A stretch of DNA of 64,000 nt. It comes from Candidatus Eiseniibacteriota bacterium. Its GTDB lineage: Bacteria; Joyebacterota; Joyebacteria; Joyebacterales; Joyebacteraceae. Numbering within the stretch: the stretch's first letter is position 1; each line of letters starts with the position of its first letter. Below are positions 9,364-32,147 of this stretch, piece by piece. The stretch is from the NCBI GenBank assembly GCA_030622115.1, contig JAUXGN010000003.1, forward strand, positions 35,465 through 99,464. The letters run 5' to 3'. The position numbers and the translations under genes were made by a program. The notes below the pieces were generated by a model. It worked only from the letters and a program-made list of their open reading frames with translations, was not told the origin of the DNA and searched no databases.

Positions 9364-10065
9364 TTGACGGACGGACGTCTCCCGCAGCGGAGTGCGGCGC
9401 GTCGTCTACGAAGGCGCATCACGCGCTCGGATCTGTTCATGCGTTTCCTCTCTCTTGTGGCGACGTGTTTCATACGGGCGGTTGTTGCTACGCTCAGGAT
9501 AGAGTTTTCGCTTGACGAGGGGTACTCCCGGCTTGTTGAGAAGGGCGAACCGATCCTTTTCGCTTTCTGGCACGGGCGTTTCTTTCTCTTCATCCACTCG
9601 TTTCGCGACAGGCGTATCGCGATCAATACGGATGTCAGCTGGGCGGGTCAGTTATCTGCCGGAGTCCTGACGAGATTCGGGTATTCCGCTGTGCCGGGCT
9701 CGAGCGCGAGACGGGGGGCAAGGGCGCTGATCGCGATGCGCAAGGAGATTGCATTGGGCCACTCAGTAGCCGTGGCCACTGACGGACCCCGGGGGCCGCG
9801 TGCGAAGTCGAAGCCCGGCGTTCTCACAGTGGCGCGGGCAACGGGCTGTCCGATCGTCCCGGCCGCGACAAGTGCGAGACCTGCATGGGTGATTCGCAAC
9901 ACTTGGGATAGATTCACGATTCCCGTCCTGTTCGCCCGCTGTGCGATCGTGTTTGGGAAGCCGATCTACCCGGGCGACGCCGGGGAAGGACTGTCGACCG
10001 AGCTGCTCGACCGCGCCCTGAATGAGACCACCGCGAAGGCGGATTCGCTAGTGGGATACGTGTAG
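9364..10065 (+). CDS. DUF374-family lysophospholipid-acyltransferase-like protein
   Basis: TTG start directly after the previous stop (an internal ATG lies at 9439); 'FAFWHGRFF…VAVATDGPRGPRAKSKPGVLTVARATGCPIVP' resembles DUF374 domains found next to Kdo/lipid A transferases. Confidence 0.6.
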   Translation: MTDGRLPQRSAARRLRRRITRSDLFMRFLSLVATCFIRAVVATLRIEFSLDEGYSRLVEKGEPILFAFWHGRFFLFIHSFRDRRIAINTDVSWAGQLSAGVLTRFGYSAVPGSSARRGARALIAMRKEIALGHSVAVATDGPRGPRAKSKPGVLTVARATGCPIVPAATSARPAWVIRNTWDRFTIPVLFARCAIVFGKPIYPGDAGEGLSTELLDRALNETTAKADSLVGYV

Positions 10066-19391: not shown

Positions 19392-19424
19392 GGAAGGGCC
19401 GGGCACATCGTGCCCGGCCCTTCC
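19392..19424. terminator. GC-rich perfect hairpin (15-bp stem, 3-nt loop) between the convergent ABC-F and C25 genes; candidate bidirectional terminator
   Basis: ggaagggccgggcac-atc-gtgcccggcccttcc; no strong U-tract on either side. Confidence 0.5.
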
Positions 19425-24189: not shown

Positions 24190-24464
24190 CACTTCCTCCT
24201 TCACCGCTTGTGTTTTCGGTTCGAGCGCCTCAGGGACAAGAACGGGATCGAAGCGCATTGTCGTACGCCCGATCCCGGTGCAAGTCACGCGGATACAAAC
24301 AGAGAAACATTACCGCGCTCAGAGCTACCGTTGGGCATCGCTTTCACGATGCGTCAGATCATCAATGTCGGCTCTTTCAGGACGGTAGCAGTGTGGTGAG
24401 CGGTGTTTCTCCCCTGATGCAGCTGCCGGATGCGAATGCCAGCTTGATTGTTTCTATTGAAGAT

Positions 24465-24520
24465 ATTGTAGCATAATTTACCGAGCGCGTCAAGGAGCAT
24501 CCGCTCGATGACGCGCTCGG
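24465..24520 (-). promoter_or_regulatory. near-consensus sigma70-type promoter on the minus strand (-35 TTGACG, 17-bp spacer, -10 TACAAT) whose -35 is embedded in a 12-bp perfect palindrome (CCGAGCGCGTCA-N16-TGACGCGCTCGG); drives the C25 gene through a ~270-nt 5' UTR
   Basis: Hexamers and spacing read from the reverse complement of 24465-24493; palindrome arms at 24481-24492 and 24509-24520. Confidence 0.5.
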
Positions 24521-24603
24521 TTTACCATATGCTCTGCAAGTGATGCCTGCCCAACTCCTACACCCGCAGTGCGCATCACTGCAACCGCCACTCACACACA
24601 AGA

Positions 24604-24649
24604 AGGCGGACAGAACCTGATCCCGACATGGGACCGGTCCTGTCCGCCT
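24604..24649 (-). terminator. hairpin (10-bp stem AGGCGGACAG/CTGTCCGCCT with an inner GGACCGGTCC palindrome) followed on the minus strand by UCUUGUGUGUG; candidate terminator of the upstream C25 gene
   Basis: Inverted repeat read from the sequence 26 nt downstream of the stop at 24675. Confidence 0.45.
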
Positions 24650-24674: not shown

Positions 24675-27600
24675 CTACTTCAGGAGTACCATCTTGCGCG
24701 AGTCTTCCCAATCGCCGATGGCGGCACGGACGAAGTAGACTCCGGATGAGACCTGCCTGCCACGCGAGTCCTTCCCGTTCCAGACGACCAAGTGGTTCCC
24801 CGCGGTAGCTGGTCCATCAACCAGGACTGAGACAAGCCTGCCGGCGACATCGTAGACGGCGAGGCGTGCGTGCGCGCCCTCGAGACCTACCGCGTAGCTG
24901 ATCGTCGTGGTGGGGTTGAACGGGTTTGGTGCATTCTGGTGGAGCCGGTTCGGGAGCGCTGCAGAAGCGTCAGCCACTCCCGTGTTACCGATGAGATTGA
25001 GATCCGTGAGGATCCTGGTCACGTATTCGAGATGCGTCGATGGATATCCCGATCCCGTCATGCCGCCGAGGATCACCGGTATCATGTAGCGGTGTGATCC
25101 GGTTGCAGGATCGACATAGTGCGTTCCCCTGCACTCGAGACTCTGGTCGCTCCAGAGCAGAGCACTGCCGGGCTCGCCGTCGGGGCCGACCTTGCTGATG
25201 AACTGATCCGGATCGGCCTGGTAGTCATACGTGAAGTAGAGTCCATCCATGACAGTTCCGGTTGCGCCATCCAGTGACTGGACGTTCCCGATGCTCTTCC
25301 CGTTCCCCATCGCGTACGTGCAATGGAAGCGCTCCCACAGATCCAGCGTCGTTTCGGTTCCGTTGACCTTGTACTGGCCACCGAAGTTCGGTTCCTCAGT
25401 GTAGAGGCTTCCGCCGTCGTCCACGAACGCGATGAGCTGAGCAGCTTCATCGTCCGACATCGGTACGTTGAAGCCGCCGAAGTTGATGACCCCGCCCAGA
25501 TAGATGATGAGGTCGAAGGGACTGAGATCTTCCGGCAGCGTCTCGGAGTAGATGTAGAACTCGCCTATCGAGTCAAGCGTCTGAAGCCACGGCACTTCCG
25601 TGCCGTCTTCCTCAGAGAAGGTATCGTTCACTCCGTCGAACGGCATGTCGCCGTCGTCGGCGTCCCACAGGAGTACCTTGGCGTTCACGCTTGCTGCTAT
25701 CGGACCGACGCAGTCAACAAGACTGTCCTCGTTGCCCCAGAGATCTCCCGCCATCACCGCGTAGTAGTATGGCTCCGCATTCGACACGGTTGTGTCGTCG
25801 AGAGTCGTGCCGTCGGGCACGAGCAGCCCGGAAGCGATGGGCGTGAGTCCGGACACGTCCGCGAATGGCGTGGACTCGCGGTAGACCTTGTAGTACGCAA
25901 AGTCGCTGGGGGCGACATAGCCCGTCCAGTCGAGTTCCACGAGGCCGCCCAGATCGAACGGATCGGCAGCTATCAGCGTGCCGATGGGGTCGGGCGCGGT
26001 CGTGTCCAACGGCTGGTCGACGATTGTGAGTGTCTCTTCGTGAGGAAGCATGTCGGGTCCCGTCACCATCATGGAGAGAGCGCCCTCGACAGTCGGATCG
26101 ATGTCCACTTCAGCGATTCCATCGGCGCCCGTTGTGAAGACCGCATCGATCTCATCGTTGTGAAGGTAGATGGACACGCCTTCAATGGCTCCATCATCAT
26201 TCTGAATCGTTACAACGAACGGCTCACCGGATAGCGGGATACTCGTGGGGCAGTTAACGGTCGCGGTTGAAGGCTCGTGAGACCATATCCTCATCTCAGG
26301 ATCACCCAACAGATTCAGCTCGTAGAGCACGTAGCGCGTGTAGCCATCGGTACGGGCTTCGCTGACGAACACATCCTTGTGAGCAGCGTGGGCCACGCCG
26401 ATGATATCGTTGCCGTGGTTGTACAGCTGGCTGAAGAACTCGCGGTCGTACCGATCGGACGTTCCGTTGCCTGGTCCACCGGGCGAGCCCCATCCATAGC
26501 GGCTGTTGCCGACAAATGCCACGCCGCCGCCGGGAGAGTTCATCCAGTGCTCGGCGATACAGTCGTAGTCGATGGCGGCCGGATAGCATCCGATCGTCAC
26601 GAAGATGCCCTGCCTGTCTCCGTTGCTCATGCCATCGAAGTCGGAGCGGTAGAGTGACGAGCTGCCGATGCAGAGGACACTGTAGTGGGCGTGGCCGTTG
26701 TGATTCGTGATGTTCTGACCGGCGTTGAGATTGCTCATGGTTCGCGATTTCGTCAGGAGTCCGTTCGTTTCATAGAGCTTCGTGATCGGATCGAACTGTC
26801 CGGGAACCGATTCATCGTCGATGTAGTTCTTGCAGATGGCATGGTCGGTCCATGGATCGGTCCACAGCACTTCCGCGAGGAAGAGCATGTTCTCCTGGTA
26901 GTCGGTAGGGAGCGTGTTCCCGGCAGGAGAACCCTCGTACGTGAGAACCTTCGTGACGAAGCGCGATGCTTCCGTCGTCGAGTTCACTGGAGCGCGGCCG
27001 ACATAGACGTCCGCATAGAGATCGATGCTGTCCTGCGTGATCTCGCCCCATGTGCTGTCGCCATCGCCGTTCCACGTGCCATCGAGGTCGCTGTAGTAGA
27101 GATCGCAGATCGGCGAATTCTCGCTTCCGCTTCCGACGTTGTATGCGTAGGCTGCACGCGCCGGCACGATATTGGTGTCGCCTCCCAGGAGAACCCACAG
27201 AGTGCCGTGGTTCTCGTAGTAGTCGATGATACAGTTTCGGACCATCTCCGCGTTGTCGACACCGTCGTAGTTCGCATAGATCCAGGAGGTCGAAACAATC
27301 TCTGTTGTGAGGCCCTTCTGTTCCTTCCAGTCGGCAAGAGGCTGGAAGAGGGACTCGTATGTTGAGCTTGTCACGATGAGATAGTCGACTTGATCATCTC
27401 TTGTCGTGAGGGTGGAAGCCGCCTCAACATCATACGGATTGACCACGAAGTCCCTGACCCTCCCGACCACAACCGCATCCGCCCGTTCAGATCGTCTCGC
27501 GGGGACCCGAGATACTCTCGTGTCCCGCTCGAGTTCGAGAGTGACAGTGATGCTCTCATTCAGCGTAAGCCTGCCGTCGAGCGGACTGTACTGGAGTGGG

Positions 27601-28159: not shown

Positions 28160-28276
28160 GGATTTATGAACCGCGCACCACATCATCGCGACTGGCCTGC
28201 GTTCCTTGATACTCTGACGCTGGCTTCATGCATACGTTGCGGCTTGTTCCGCTCCACCAGCATGGTTGCCGTGAGA

Positions 28277-28302
28277 ACGCCCCCGGCAGTCGCCGGGGGC
28301 GT
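28277..28302. terminator. GC-rich hairpin (11-bp stem ACGCCCCCGGC / GCCGGGGGCGT, loop AGTC) ~45 nt downstream of the paralog-A gene; candidate terminator or attenuator
   Basis: Inverted repeat read from the sequence; T-rich run on the plus side only. Confidence 0.35.
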
Positions 28303-28348
28303 TCTATTAGTGATCCGTACTCACGCCGTAAGCTCTCTCTATACTATG

Positions 28349-29584
28349 CTATCTATAGAAGGACTTGATCGTGCCCCAACTCGAGCGCTCGACCGGGATC
28401 TCAGTCTCCATGAGCCATGTGTCATCAAGCATGATGCCTGCGCCGCCCGCGGTCCCGGGCCCGCAGCCGTTGTCCGTGGTGTTGAAGGTCAACTTGAACT
28501 GGAAGAACGTCCCCGGCAGGAGATCCGTGATATCGATGCCGTCGAGACCGTGCGCGGACCACCCGTCACACTGCCCGAAATCGCCCCACCAGGCTCCGAC
28601 CTGGTTCCAGACTACCCCTCCGTCGACTGTCACCGACTCCGTGTAGTAGTCGTTGTCCACCTGCGGTACCTCGGCGTGGAGGGCAAAGAAGAGAGTACAG
28701 GCCGACGCGGGGGTGAGACCGGAGATATCCACCTGCGGTGAGATGAGGGAATTGGAGAGATCTGGTGGGATGAGACTGGTATCTGCGTCATCTCCACACC
28801 ACCAGCTGGTCGGGTCACTGTATGCCGGGCACGCACGTGTGATCTGGTGCCAGTAGTCGCCTGATGACGCGGGGACTGCTGGAGTGCAGAGCCCGCCCGA
28901 TTCCACGTCGTCCAGGAAGTAGACGGCGCCGCCGTAGAAATCGAAGATCGTCACGTTGTCTACCATATAGGCGCCTCCGACCGAGTCGTAGTCGCCATCC
29001 TCATCGGAATAGGCGCCGTCCGATACGAAGCGGAAGCGAGCTTCTACAGGATTGTCAGCCACATTGAGCACGAAGCCGTACGCACCTAAGTCGACCCAGG
29101 TGCCGCCGCTGATCAGGCCGCAGTACCCGGCGTTCTGCGCTGTGAAAACCCCGCCGATTTTCACATCGACATACGTGAAATCATAATCCTGCTCGCTGTC
29201 GTAGTAATGCACGAATGTGAGAATGGGATAGTAGGCGGTGCTCACATCCGTCGTCGGGATGATGAGAAGGTCGGTCCATGTGTTGCCGTAGCCGCCATTG
29301 GTGTCGTATGCGAAGTTACCACACCACCAGTGGTTCGTGTCGTAGGCCATGTACGTGTCAACATGGAAATGCGGAGTGGCGACAGCCGTCTCATCCACAG
29401 TCGTCCATCCGTTGGTTCCACTTTCCATGTCGTCGAACCAGAGCATGGCGGGCCGGGGGCCGAGGTCGGAATAGTCGGCGACCGACGCCTGCTGTCTGGC
29501 TGGGAGGATGGGGGAAAACAGTACGACTGCCGCGAGGGCTACGAGAACAGTCCTTGCAGTCATGATAGGACCTCCTTTGCGCAT
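28349..29584 (-). CDS. secreted Cys/Trp-rich protein of an unrecognised family with an internally duplicated module (paralog A)
   Basis: 411 aa; signal peptide; 'WWCG' appears twice (HWWCGNFAYD / SWWCGDDADT) with aromatic-rich beta-strand periodicity; no HEXXH; conserved C-terminus 'PVERSSWGTIKSFYR'; alternative start at 29563. Confidence 0.6.
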   Translation of the reverse strand: MRKGGPIMTARTVLVALAAVVLFSPILPARQQASVADYSDLGPRPAMLWFDDMESGTNGWTTVDETAVATPHFHVDTYMAYDTNHWWCGNFAYDTNGGYGNTWTDLLIIPTTDVSTAYYPILTFVHYYDSEQDYDFTYVDVKIGGVFTAQNAGYCGLISGGTWVDLGAYGFVLNVADNPVEARFRFVSDGAYSDEDGDYDSVGGAYMVDNVTIFDFYGGAVYFLDDVESGGLCTPAVPASSGDYWHQITRACPAYSDPTSWWCGDDADTSLIPPDLSNSLISPQVDISGLTPASACTLFFALHAEVPQVDNDYYTESVTVDGGVVWNQVGAWWGDFGQCDGWSAHGLDGIDITDLLPGTFFQFKLTFNTTDNGCGPGTAGGAGIMLDDTWLMETEIPVERSSWGTIKSFYR

Positions 29585-29692
29585 GAGATCGTCTCTCTCC
29601 GCTCGATCGGCGGCGGATAGGCCAGCTACGACTGATTCTTGGCCGCGGATCCCACATTGTCAACACAAAAAACCACATTCGCGGGTTGGGAT

Positions 29693-30952
29693 TCATCGAT
29701 ACAGCGCCTTGATCCTACCCCAGCTCTTGCGCTCAACCGGAACATCCGTTGTCTCAAGCCAGATGTCGTCGAGCGCAATCCCGGCTCCTCCCGCGACCCC
29801 CGGTCCGCATCCGTTCGATGTCGTGAAGAAGCGGATCATGAACTTGAATGATGTCCCAGGGAAGAGATGCGTAATGCCGTGTCCGGTAACGCCCGCGTTT
29901 CCCCAACCGTCGCACGACTCGAAGTCACCCCAGTACGCTCCCAACTGATACCACGATGCTCCATCATCTACCGATGCGTAGACGCTCCAGTAGTCGTTAT
30001 CCACGGTTGGCACTTCGGCGTGCAGCATGTAGCGCAGCGTGCAGGCGACCGAGCGATCGAGGCCGCTCAAGTCGACCGCCGGTGACTCCAGACGATTGTC
30101 CAGGTTGGGCGGGATGTGGCCGGTATCGGCGTCGTCTCCGCACCACCAGCTGCATGGATCGCTGTAGGCGGCGCACCGCCTGTCAGTGATGTGCCAGTAG
30201 TCTCCCACGGCCGGACGCACGCTGGGATTGCAGAGACCTCCGTTCTCGACATCGTCGAGAAAGTACGTCTCACCGCCGTAGTAGTCGAAGACCTTGATGT
30301 TATCAACGTGGTACGCGCCGCCGATCGAGTCGAAGCCACCGTCTTCATCTGAGATCGTGCCGTCCGAGAGAAAGCGGAAGCGAAGCTCCAGCGGGTGGTC
30401 GTATCCCTCGACAACGTATCCGTAGACACCGAAGTCCTGCCAGGAACCACCGGGTATCAGACCGCAGTAGCCCGGGTTCAGATCTGTGAATTCACCCCCG
30501 TCCTTCACTTGCACGTAGGTGAAATCGGAGCCCGGCTCGGAGTGGTAGTAGTGCGCGAATGTGAGTATCGGGTAGTCGGCGCCGGACACGTCGATGAGAG
30601 GTAGCTCAAGGCGATCGTCCCACTGGTCTCCGTATCCACCGTCCGAGTCGAAATCGAACGAACCGCACCACCATGAGCGTTCGCCCTCAAAGGCCATGTA
30701 GGTGTTCACATGAAAGTGCGGCGCTACGCCCCACGTGTTGTCTCGGTGATTCCAGCCGGCTTCGCCGCTCTCCATGTCGTCGTACCAGATAACGGTGCCC
30801 CGCGTCCTCGGGGATCGGAATGCGCGTGTGTCCATCTCGGGAGTTGCTCTGCCGTACGTGGGAAACACGAGAACCAGCGTGACGATCAGGAGAAGGCCGA
30901 CGAGATTTCTCATGTGAGTACGCCGCATCTGCGGGGATTTCGATCCGGACAT
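29693..30952 (-). CDS. secreted Cys/Trp-rich protein (paralog B, ~60% identical to 28349..29584)
   Basis: 419 aa; AAGGAGAG SD; same module order and Cys positions; C-terminus 'PVERKSWGRIKALYR'. Confidence 0.6.
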   Translation of the reverse strand: MSGSKSPQMRRTHMRNLVGLLLIVTLVLVFPTYGRATPEMDTRAFRSPRTRGTVIWYDDMESGEAGWNHRDNTWGVAPHFHVNTYMAFEGERSWWCGSFDFDSDGGYGDQWDDRLELPLIDVSGADYPILTFAHYYHSEPGSDFTYVQVKDGGEFTDLNPGYCGLIPGGSWQDFGVYGYVVEGYDHPLELRFRFLSDGTISDEDGGFDSIGGAYHVDNIKVFDYYGGETYFLDDVENGGLCNPSVRPAVGDYWHITDRRCAAYSDPCSWWCGDDADTGHIPPNLDNRLESPAVDLSGLDRSVACTLRYMLHAEVPTVDNDYWSVYASVDDGASWYQLGAYWGDFESCDGWGNAGVTGHGITHLFPGTSFKFMIRFFTTSNGCGPGVAGGAGIALDDIWLETTDVPVERKSWGRIKALYR

Positions 30953-31126: not shown

Positions 31127-31211
31127 TACAGCTGTGGTTGATTCAATACTCTTGCGGACTCCGGACTGCTGAAGGGTGTCGGGGGGACGTGCCAATGTGG
31201 AGGGTGTGTTG

Positions 31212-32147
31212 ATGAAGACAAGAAGAACGGCTCTGTGGACCATTCTGGTCATGTTCCTGGTGGTGGCTGCTGTCTCACCGCCCGCGGGAGCGAAGAAGGA
31301 CGAGGCGCCGGCGGGTCTCAAGAAGATGATCGCGGTCGTCGAGTTCGAGGACAAGAGCGACCGCAGCCGCTGGAACTGGACCGGTCCCAATCCTGGTCGC
31401 GGGATGTCCGACATGCTTGTGACCGCGCTTGTTCAGTCCGGCGCGTTCAGTGTGATGGAGCGTGAGCAGCTGGATCATGTCCTTGCCGAGCAGAACCTCG
31501 GACAGTCGGGGATGGTCACGGCCCAGACCGCGCCTCAGTTGGGAAAACTCCTCGGTGTTGCAGCCATCGTCTACGGCTCGGTGTCCGAGTTTGGCTACAT
31601 GGCATCCGATACCGGCGGCAGCATTCCCGGGTTGGGCGGCGGCGGATTTTCGAAGACGACGGCGCGCGTCTCCATCGACGTCCGTCTGATAGACACGACG
31701 ACGGCGGAGATCATCCTGGCCGAGACCGCATCGGACGAGAAAACGCAGATGGGACTCAAGCTCAGAACGCAGGATTTCTCCTTCGGGCACGACGGCAAAT
31801 TCGATCAGACGCTTGTGGGCAAGGCCACGCGTGAGGCGATCGAGGATCTGGTCGAGAGCATAGTTGAGGCACTCGAAGATGTCCCCTGGACCGGGCGGAT
31901 CATCAAGGCCTCCGGTGGGAAGATCTACCTCAACGCCGGACAGAGTATCGGCATCACGTCAGGGATGAGATTCAACGTCTACAGGATGGGGGAGGCTCTG
32001 ATCGATCCGGTCACAGGATTGGATCTGGGAGCTGAGGAGGAGTTGCTCGGCGTCATTGAGGCGTCCGATATCAAGGAGAAGTACTCCATCTGTTCGCTCG
32101 TCAGTGGTTCGGGACTCGATGCCGGAGACATGGTTCGCTACGAGTAG
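31212..32147 (+). CDS. CsgG-family (curli production assembly/transport component-like) secreted or lipoprotein
   Basis: ATG at 31212 (the in-frame GTG at 31176 is also possible); 'KKMIAVVEFEDKS…GRGMSDMLVTALVQSGAFSVMEREQL' matches the CsgG N-terminal core. Confidence 0.65.
   Translation: MKTRRTALWTILVMFLVVAAVSPPAGAKKDEAPAGLKKMIAVVEFEDKSDRSRWNWTGPNPGRGMSDMLVTALVQSGAFSVMEREQLDHVLAEQNLGQSGMVTAQTAPQLGKLLGVAAIVYGSVSEFGYMASDTGGSIPGLGGGGFSKTTARVSIDVRLIDTTTAEIILAETASDEKTQMGLKLRTQDFSFGHDGKFDQTLVGKATREAIEDLVESIVEALEDVPWTGRIIKASGGKIYLNAGQSIGITSGMRFNVYRMGEALIDPVTGLDLGAEEELLGVIEASDIKEKYSICSLVSGSGLDAGDMVRYE

Follow-up and report, generated by a model that had tools for sequence, protein, structure and literature searches.

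The inverted repeat that covers the -35 box of the promoter of a giant C25 peptidase gene in this 64-kb stretch of DNA (64,000 nucleotides, hereafter the window) is, as its pattern of change among related loci indicates, a hairpin kept by selection on structure. We consider it probable that this hairpin is the terminator or insulator of the upstream, co-directional peptidase gene (C25-A) and that it overlaps the promoter from which the leader RNA of the downstream gene (C25-B) would be transcribed. A palindrome on a -35 box is easily misread as an operator, and it is the cross-genome comparison presented here that separates a structure-selected hairpin from a protein site. If correct, our reading extends terminator-promoter overlap, known from ribosomal-protein operons of enterobacteria, to the tandem secreted proteases of an uncultured phylum, with the 4.7-kb C25-B gene being transcribed through a conserved leader RNA that has no Rfam entry.

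C25-B encodes a 1572-aa protein in which Pfam recognizes a Peptidase_C25 domain, FG-GAP repeats and a C-terminal end of the FlgD_ig/Por_Secre_tail type. Its closest named homologues are from Candidatus Eisenbacteria, where the protein, at around 1575 aa, is well conserved; an exact-sequence look-up of the window's own protein gave no match. The gene immediately upstream on the same (minus) strand, C25-A (ORF 28130-24675), is by Pfam a second C25 peptidase, and its TAG stop codon (24675-24677) lies 154 nt before the hairpin. C25-A probably starts at ATG 28079 and not at the listed ATG 28130; ATG 28079 stands behind AAGGAGGA and yields a protein of 1134 aa, as in the orthologues. The comparison set comprised 14 distinct loci including the window, with C25-B proteins 51-100% identical to that of the window. 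Loci L081-L089 and L100 came from exact-protein look-ups, and L094, L097 and L098 from a promoter/leader DNA pattern; the pattern scan of metagenomes returned 10 stretches, among them the chance matches L092, L093, L095 and L096 and three near-duplicates of other loci. Entries L001-L080, matched through a C-terminal secretion-domain peptide pattern, belong to unrelated phyla. The order C25-A, intergenic region, C25-B is shared by the window and ten loci (L081-L085, L087, L094, L097, L098 and L100).

The C25-B promoter reads, on the minus strand, TTGACG (24493-24488), a spacer of 17 nt and TACAAT (24470-24465), the latter preceded by TG (24473-24472) and C to give an extended -10 (24465-24473). 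The earlier note had described this as a near-consensus promoter, and the comparison bears it out, more through conservation than through the match itself: at 10/12 consensus positions plus the TG the match is by itself not significant, as 11 sites with 10/12 matches are found in the window against 5.6 +/- 2.5 in shuffles. The entire unit (-35, 17-nt spacer, TGn, TAnnAT) is in register in 14/14 loci, all of which carry TGnTAnnAT. TTGAC is invariant in 13 of these, the exception being L088u with TTGAG, and TTGA(C/G) accordingly covers the full set. Between lineages, the spacer sequence and all DNA upstream of the hairpin have diverged beyond alignment. In the corresponding regions of L087, L094 and L098 (1.2-2 kb), the C25-B promoter is the single promoter-like site, with 0.1-0.2 expected. 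This phylogenetic footprint across 14 loci and the sole occurrence in three orthologous regions identify the C25-B promoter, at the level of comparative evidence, as genuine and of the housekeeping sigma-70 type with an extended -10, its hexamers being TTGACA- and TATAAT-like, 17 +/- 1 nt apart and kept as a unit. Hexamers of the housekeeping sigma-70 type do not suit an ECF sigma factor, and an ECF factor is therefore unlikely to act at this promoter. The distance of about 270 nt from promoter to peptidase gene given in the earlier note also stands, with the ATG at 24189-24187 behind the ribosome binding site AAGGAGGA (24201-24194), both this site and the N-terminus being conserved in the orthologues. 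C25-A has a promoter of its own, TTGACG-17-TAAAAT (28159-28131, minus strand), which all orthologous loci retain and whose -35 is free of any hairpin; the C25-A and C25-B promoters both carry TCCTTGAC.

The 12-bp perfect palindrome originally noticed on the -35, CCGAGCGCGTCA (24520-24509) and TGACGCGCTCGG (24492-24481) on the minus strand with 16 nt in between, proved to be part of a larger repeat. Beyond thirteen perfect pairs (24521-24509 with 24492-24480) the stem continues, past a 2x2 internal loop, with 4 further pairs that are capped by a GGAT loop. The arms thus measure 19 nt each, are 89% complementary and lie 4 nt apart, and together they make up a 42-nt hairpin (24480-24521, minus strand) whose 3' arm (24498-24480) encloses the -35 (24493-24488). 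Folding of the gene strand gives -35.7 kcal/mol (z = -7.3; 0/200 shuffles as good), that of the other strand -34.0 kcal/mol (z = -7.6). Stem-loop inverted repeats of such strength number six in the whole 64-kb window, and four of them stand directly after genes of the cluster (19392-19424, 24480-24521, 24604-24649 and 28274-28305). The palindrome at the -35 is thus not a chance feature.

Comparison with the related loci reveals what has been conserved. A hairpin with the -35 in its 3' arm and with compensatory changes is present in 12/14 loci, so that the palindrome is indeed conserved upstream of orthologous C25 genes, a point on which the earlier note had let its proposal depend. The hairpin lies over the -35 in all 11 loci with C25-A directly upstream and in L086, which has a different upstream context, and it is missing from L089, which has tRNA genes upstream, and from L088u, a rearranged paralogue array in which a separate hairpin directly follows the stop codon. 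Its length is 36-48 nt (66 nt in L086), its stem spans 17-21 bp, and the offset of the fold-back axis differs among loci (13, 15, 16, 18, 19 or 38 nt). For the arm alignment the 3' arm was anchored at the -35 and one fold-back axis was chosen per sequence, a procedure that leans slightly towards pairing; in this alignment 87% of the cells pair, compared to 34-55% when the partner is slid. Changes on both sides are seen at 7/18 pairs, and the 18 double-change cells were reached by 0/500 shuffles. Among the eight closest loci the arm sequence is near-invariant. In the wider lineage of the window it is GAGCGCGTCA/TGACGCGCTC, in L087 GGGGGGTCA/TGACCCCC and in L094, L098 and L100 GGGCG/CGCCC, while the inner 4-5 bp occur as the compensatory variants GAGC/GCTC, GGAG/CTCC and GGGAC/GTTCC, the segment between the arms being self-complementary. 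Mismatches on the gene strand are of the G:U type in 19 cases versus the A:C type in 9, and the isolated hairpin is more stable on the gene strand by >1 kcal/mol in 8/11 loci; both counts are drawn from related sequences and are suggestive at most.

Two of the compared loci deserve separate description. The hairpin loop of L086 contains a 24-nt insertion, a self-pairing tandem duplication that brings the axis offset to 38 nt. In this locus (L086 1-290; protein 85% identical) a truncated opposite-strand ORF (MDEYTTDPIWVGLDVHQNSV...) takes the place of C25-A upstream of the hairpin. This ORF has no Pfam match, and an initial guess that it encodes an IS110-type transposase was dropped on that account. 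A 17-mer in L086, GAGCCCGACCGTTCCAT, is common to L087 only. The duplication and the upstream context of L086 may be the trace of an insertion. L088 (1-10731) is from one Eisenbacteria genome with three tandem FG-GAP/C25 paralogues, of which the middle one only has the promoter and leader, the -35 (TTGAGA) there lying outside any hairpin.

We propose that the hairpin would work as RNA, on the gene strand, and that its role would be that of an intrinsic terminator or insulator towards transcripts coming from the co-directional C25-A gene. Its 3' arm at the same time contains the -35, and its A/T-rich tail the spacer and -10, of the C25-B promoter. With the -35 inside the 3' arm and the tail doubling as spacer and -10, the C25-A and C25-B transcription units would be joined through a terminator-promoter overlap. 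The hairpin would then terminate transcription and would shield the folding decision of the C25-B leader from upstream read-through, and it may in addition couple the C25-A and C25-B promoters.

The position of the hairpin agrees with this proposal. It begins 17-55 nt past the C25-A stop codon in 8/11 measurable loci, the distance in the others being 86 nt (L085), 116 nt (L087) and 154 nt (window), and in L082, L083, L094, L097 and L098 (17-29 nt) it is apparently the first structure after C25-A. The tail varies: it is TTTTTGTGG in L087, L094 and L098, with 6 T in the first 10 nt, compared to 3-5 elsewhere; the window, with UAAAUUAUGCU and 4 T, has a weakly U-rich tail. A simple terminator rule, which asks for an uninterrupted stem, a loop of 3-8 nt and 5 T in 8, flags the -35 hairpin in 0/4 scans (window, L087, L094 and L098). 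In stem and position, then, the element is what one expects of an intrinsic terminator: the transcribed strand forms a stable, GC-rich stem-loop whose pairing has been maintained, and a co-directional stop codon lies shortly upstream. Assuming that the hairpin is the terminator, its stem and tail share bases with the next promoter, and the arrangement is kept where the genes are collinear and lost where they are not, in a sample that is small and in which L086 keeps the hairpin despite its different upstream context.

The -35 hairpin is not the only one in its surroundings. In the window, the first hairpin after C25-A (24593-24649, minus strand) starts 25 nt past the stop codon and has a better tail, UCUUGUGUGUG, than the -35 hairpin. 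It is lineage-specific, and the extra hairpin that L081 has at this position is not its homologue. Two tandem hairpins thus precede the C25-B promoter in the window, and because the one with the better tail is already present upstream, the role of the -35 hairpin as a terminator in this genome would be that of a backup, second in line. Two other post-gene hairpins, 19392-19424 (after C25-B, between convergent genes) and 28274-28305 (after the 411-aa gene discussed below), have perfect GC-rich stems of 15 and 14 bp, respectively, and no clear U tract in the window; they resemble the -35 hairpin in size and GC content and have similarly poor U tracts. Terminators in this genome seem to be hairpin-dominated. 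In the same genomes these hairpins are equally conserved and show compensatory changes of their own, for example CCCCCGG/CCGGGGG versus CCTCCGG/CCGGAGG. Since terminator hairpins of the cluster are conserved to the same level, conservation of the arms at the -35 requires no bound protein.

This bears directly on the interpretation offered in the earlier note, namely that the palindrome is a classic operator of a dimeric regulator. Here, a homodimer would sit on both arms and repress or activate the promoter by covering the -35, and we now regard this as improbable. Its appeal is clear: the -35 is overlapped by a repeat with 13 perfect bp, orthologous genes have this repeat upstream as well, with arms that hardly change among the eight closest loci, and the symmetric two-arm changes of the deeper lineages would also be expected of a homodimer site that co-evolves with its protein. 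A dimer operator of fixed geometry would, however, predict half-sites at a rigid centre-to-centre distance, a spacer without self-complementarity and no strand bias, and is disfavoured on each of these counts, as the arm spacing varies from one orthologous locus to another (see the axis offsets above), the inter-arm segment pairs with itself and shows compensatory changes that an operator does not need, and the mismatches lean towards G:U on one strand. In the deeper lineages the arms alter their sequence with retention of pairing, and ordinary terminator hairpins of the cluster match them in sequence conservation. The genomic context adds to these objections. The palindrome 12-mer occurs within the 64-kb window as the two arms only; a further match at 9419 carries one mismatch and is no more than chance would give. 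The looser two-arm pattern occurs once per locus and always at the orthologous position. Further copies from which a regulon could be defined were thus absent from the window and from the fetched loci, as were copies at other promoters. The XRE-cupin regulator and ECF pair that had been suggested as nearby candidates were not located. Of the 18 genes run against Pfam, which extend from the palindrome about 15 kb towards lower and 13 kb towards higher coordinates, none is a regulator gene, and the flanks of 8 orthologous loci, 6 kb each, contained none either.

A hairpin selected for its structure need not be a terminator, and we assign a small but real probability to its being instead a 3'-end stabilizer or a processing site (for instance for RNase III) in transcripts that read through from C25-A into C25-B, or else a DNA cruciform, in which last case recognition of the -35 would become supercoiling-sensitive. 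Covariation demonstrates that the pairing is selected and is silent on the role. The U tract is weak in the lineage of the window and in L100, the stem of 17-21 bp is long, and the hairpin has been kept where another one already follows the upstream gene (window and L081), all of which would fit such a role. Against it, in the deeper lineages the stem runs straight into a canonical U tract, and the location, 17-55 nt past the stop codon, is that of a terminator, while the toleration of G:T mismatches at several positions argues specifically against a cruciform. That the repeat is without function, the right arm being kept as promoter only and the left arm being a chance or hitch-hiking copy, is very improbable. 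The right arm does hold the -35, and the C25-A promoter has the same upstream bases (TCCTTGAC), yet the left arm lies outside the promoter in a flank that cannot be aligned and nevertheless mirrors every change of the right arm, and the fold z-score of -7.3 likewise speaks against it. The reading of the hairpin as terminator or insulator of C25-A, overlapping the C25-B leader promoter, is accordingly the one we prefer.

The RNA that the promoter would start downstream of this element is a conserved leader of about 225 nt with its own intrinsic terminator at the end, and C25-B would be expressed solely by read-through of that terminator. The suggestion in the earlier note that the 270-nt stretch up to the ATG may carry additional control is supported by what we find there, a conserved structured RNA with an intrinsic terminator. 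In the window the leader comprises about 224 nt (24235-24458, minus strand), with a start at about 24458 inferred from the -10 and an end at the terminator U tract; among loci its length is 180-290 nt. Its hallmark is the invariant motif ACUGCUAC, located 15-16 nt after GGAG, which occurs as a single copy per related locus and always in the leader, the leader itself being found once in each of the 14 loci. The composite pattern of GGAG, 16 nt and ACTGCTAC (24385-24412, minus strand) has one match in the window versus 0.03 expected. The motif region forms a helix with a downstream GGYAG, in the window between GCUACCG (24389-24383) and CGGUAGC (24324-24330, minus strand), which closes a central domain whose size lies between 52 and 118 nt even in the lineage to which the window belongs. 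The leader terminator, CCGGGAUCGGGCG...CGCUUCGAUCCCG followed by UUCUUGUC (24235-24278, minus strand), shows covariation, with pair 282/317 being CG in 5, UA in 4 and UG in 2 sequences. A promoter scan of the window revealed no promoter-like site between this terminator and the ATG, from which it follows that C25-B depends on read-through.

Alternative partners of the 5' arm of the leader terminator were sought by duplex search. In 11/14 loci the best such partner lies 29-56 nt upstream, and in the window the predicted partner includes CGGUAGC, the 3' strand of the motif-region helix, a predicted alternative pairing that at most hints at an attenuator-like design. The leader structure as a whole appears partly supported by covariation. 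Rfam 15 returned 0 matches in the window at gathering thresholds, and a permissive Rfam search of the intergenic region gave chance-level microRNA and snoRNA matches only (E >= 0.25). Two other identities were considered and rejected: a leader peptide, on inspection by eye, as there is no conserved start codon or reading frame around ACUGCUAC, and an RfaH ops element at CGGUAGC, which is not conserved across lineages. The leader is thus a candidate new cis-regulatory RNA and the more novel part of the locus.

A more ambitious joint reading would take promoter, hairpin and leader together as a single RNA regulator of the attenuation type, not described before, that is dedicated to the giant FG-GAP/C25 peptidase of Eisenbacteria. 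We put this forward tentatively and judge it less likely than not. As parts of that same tentative proposal, the leader would sense a ligand or protein or recruit an antiterminator, and the -35 hairpin would be an insulator that gives the leader a defined 5' end. The hairpin may, moreover, pass terminating polymerases on from C25-A to the C25-B promoter.

The wider neighbourhood of the two peptidase genes is as follows. An ABC-F gene is convergent with C25-B. C25-A is preceded by two proteins without Pfam families and then by a divergent CsgG-like gene. This group of genes occupies 28349-30952 (minus strand) and 31176-32147 (plus strand); the two proteins are paralogues of unknown function (411 and 419 aa) whose genes adjoin the divergent CsgG-like gene, and their only domain match is a sub-threshold InhA-like MAM match. 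All collinear loci examined have one or both of the paralogue genes ahead of C25-A; the CsgG-like gene was seen in the window and L081 only. The genes of unknown function, the CsgG-like gene and the C25 pair may form a secretion or surface module.

Several known systems invite comparison. Palindromic operators that overlap -35 boxes are bound by dimeric repressors or activators, and the C25-B element is like them in that a perfect inverted repeat covers the -35; it differs in its variable spacing, self-complementary spacer, strand-biased mismatches and single copy, and in having no linked regulator. Intrinsic terminators of GC-rich bacteria include hairpin-dominated ones with poor U tracts. 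With these the element shares a GC-rich gene-strand stem-loop soon after a stop codon, compensatory pairing and, in some lineages, a U-rich tail. It differs in its long and interrupted stem and, in the window, in its weak U tract and in having another hairpin between itself and the gene. Attenuation leaders comprise riboswitches, protein-responsive leaders and recruiters of processive antiterminators (LoaP- and EAR-type). The C25-B leader is organized in the same manner, with a promoter, a conserved structured RNA, an intrinsic terminator and then a long gene, and with a predicted alternative pairing of the 5' arm of the terminator, but it belongs to no Rfam family and its structure is partly backed by covariation. 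The closest parallel to the hairpin-promoter element is found in Salmonella, where Brandis, Cao and Hughes (2019, PMC6735719) showed the secE-nusG promoter to be overlapped by the tufB terminator, and where initiation falls as the polymerase load on that terminator rises (PMC6735719). In both systems the terminator of the upstream unit, as which we read the hairpin here, shares DNA with the promoter of the co-directional unit that follows, and in both the overlap is conserved over a long evolutionary distance while the units are collinear and is missing where collinearity is broken. The C25 element differs from tufB-secE in its host, Candidatus Eisenbacteria, and its genes, two paralogous secreted C25 peptidases, in the placement of the -35 inside the 3' arm of the stem, and in the long structured leader downstream; coupling of expression has been shown experimentally for tufB-secE, whereas at the C25 locus it is a possibility read from the sequence. 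At that sequence level, the C25-A/C25-B element has the defining features of a terminator-promoter overlap.
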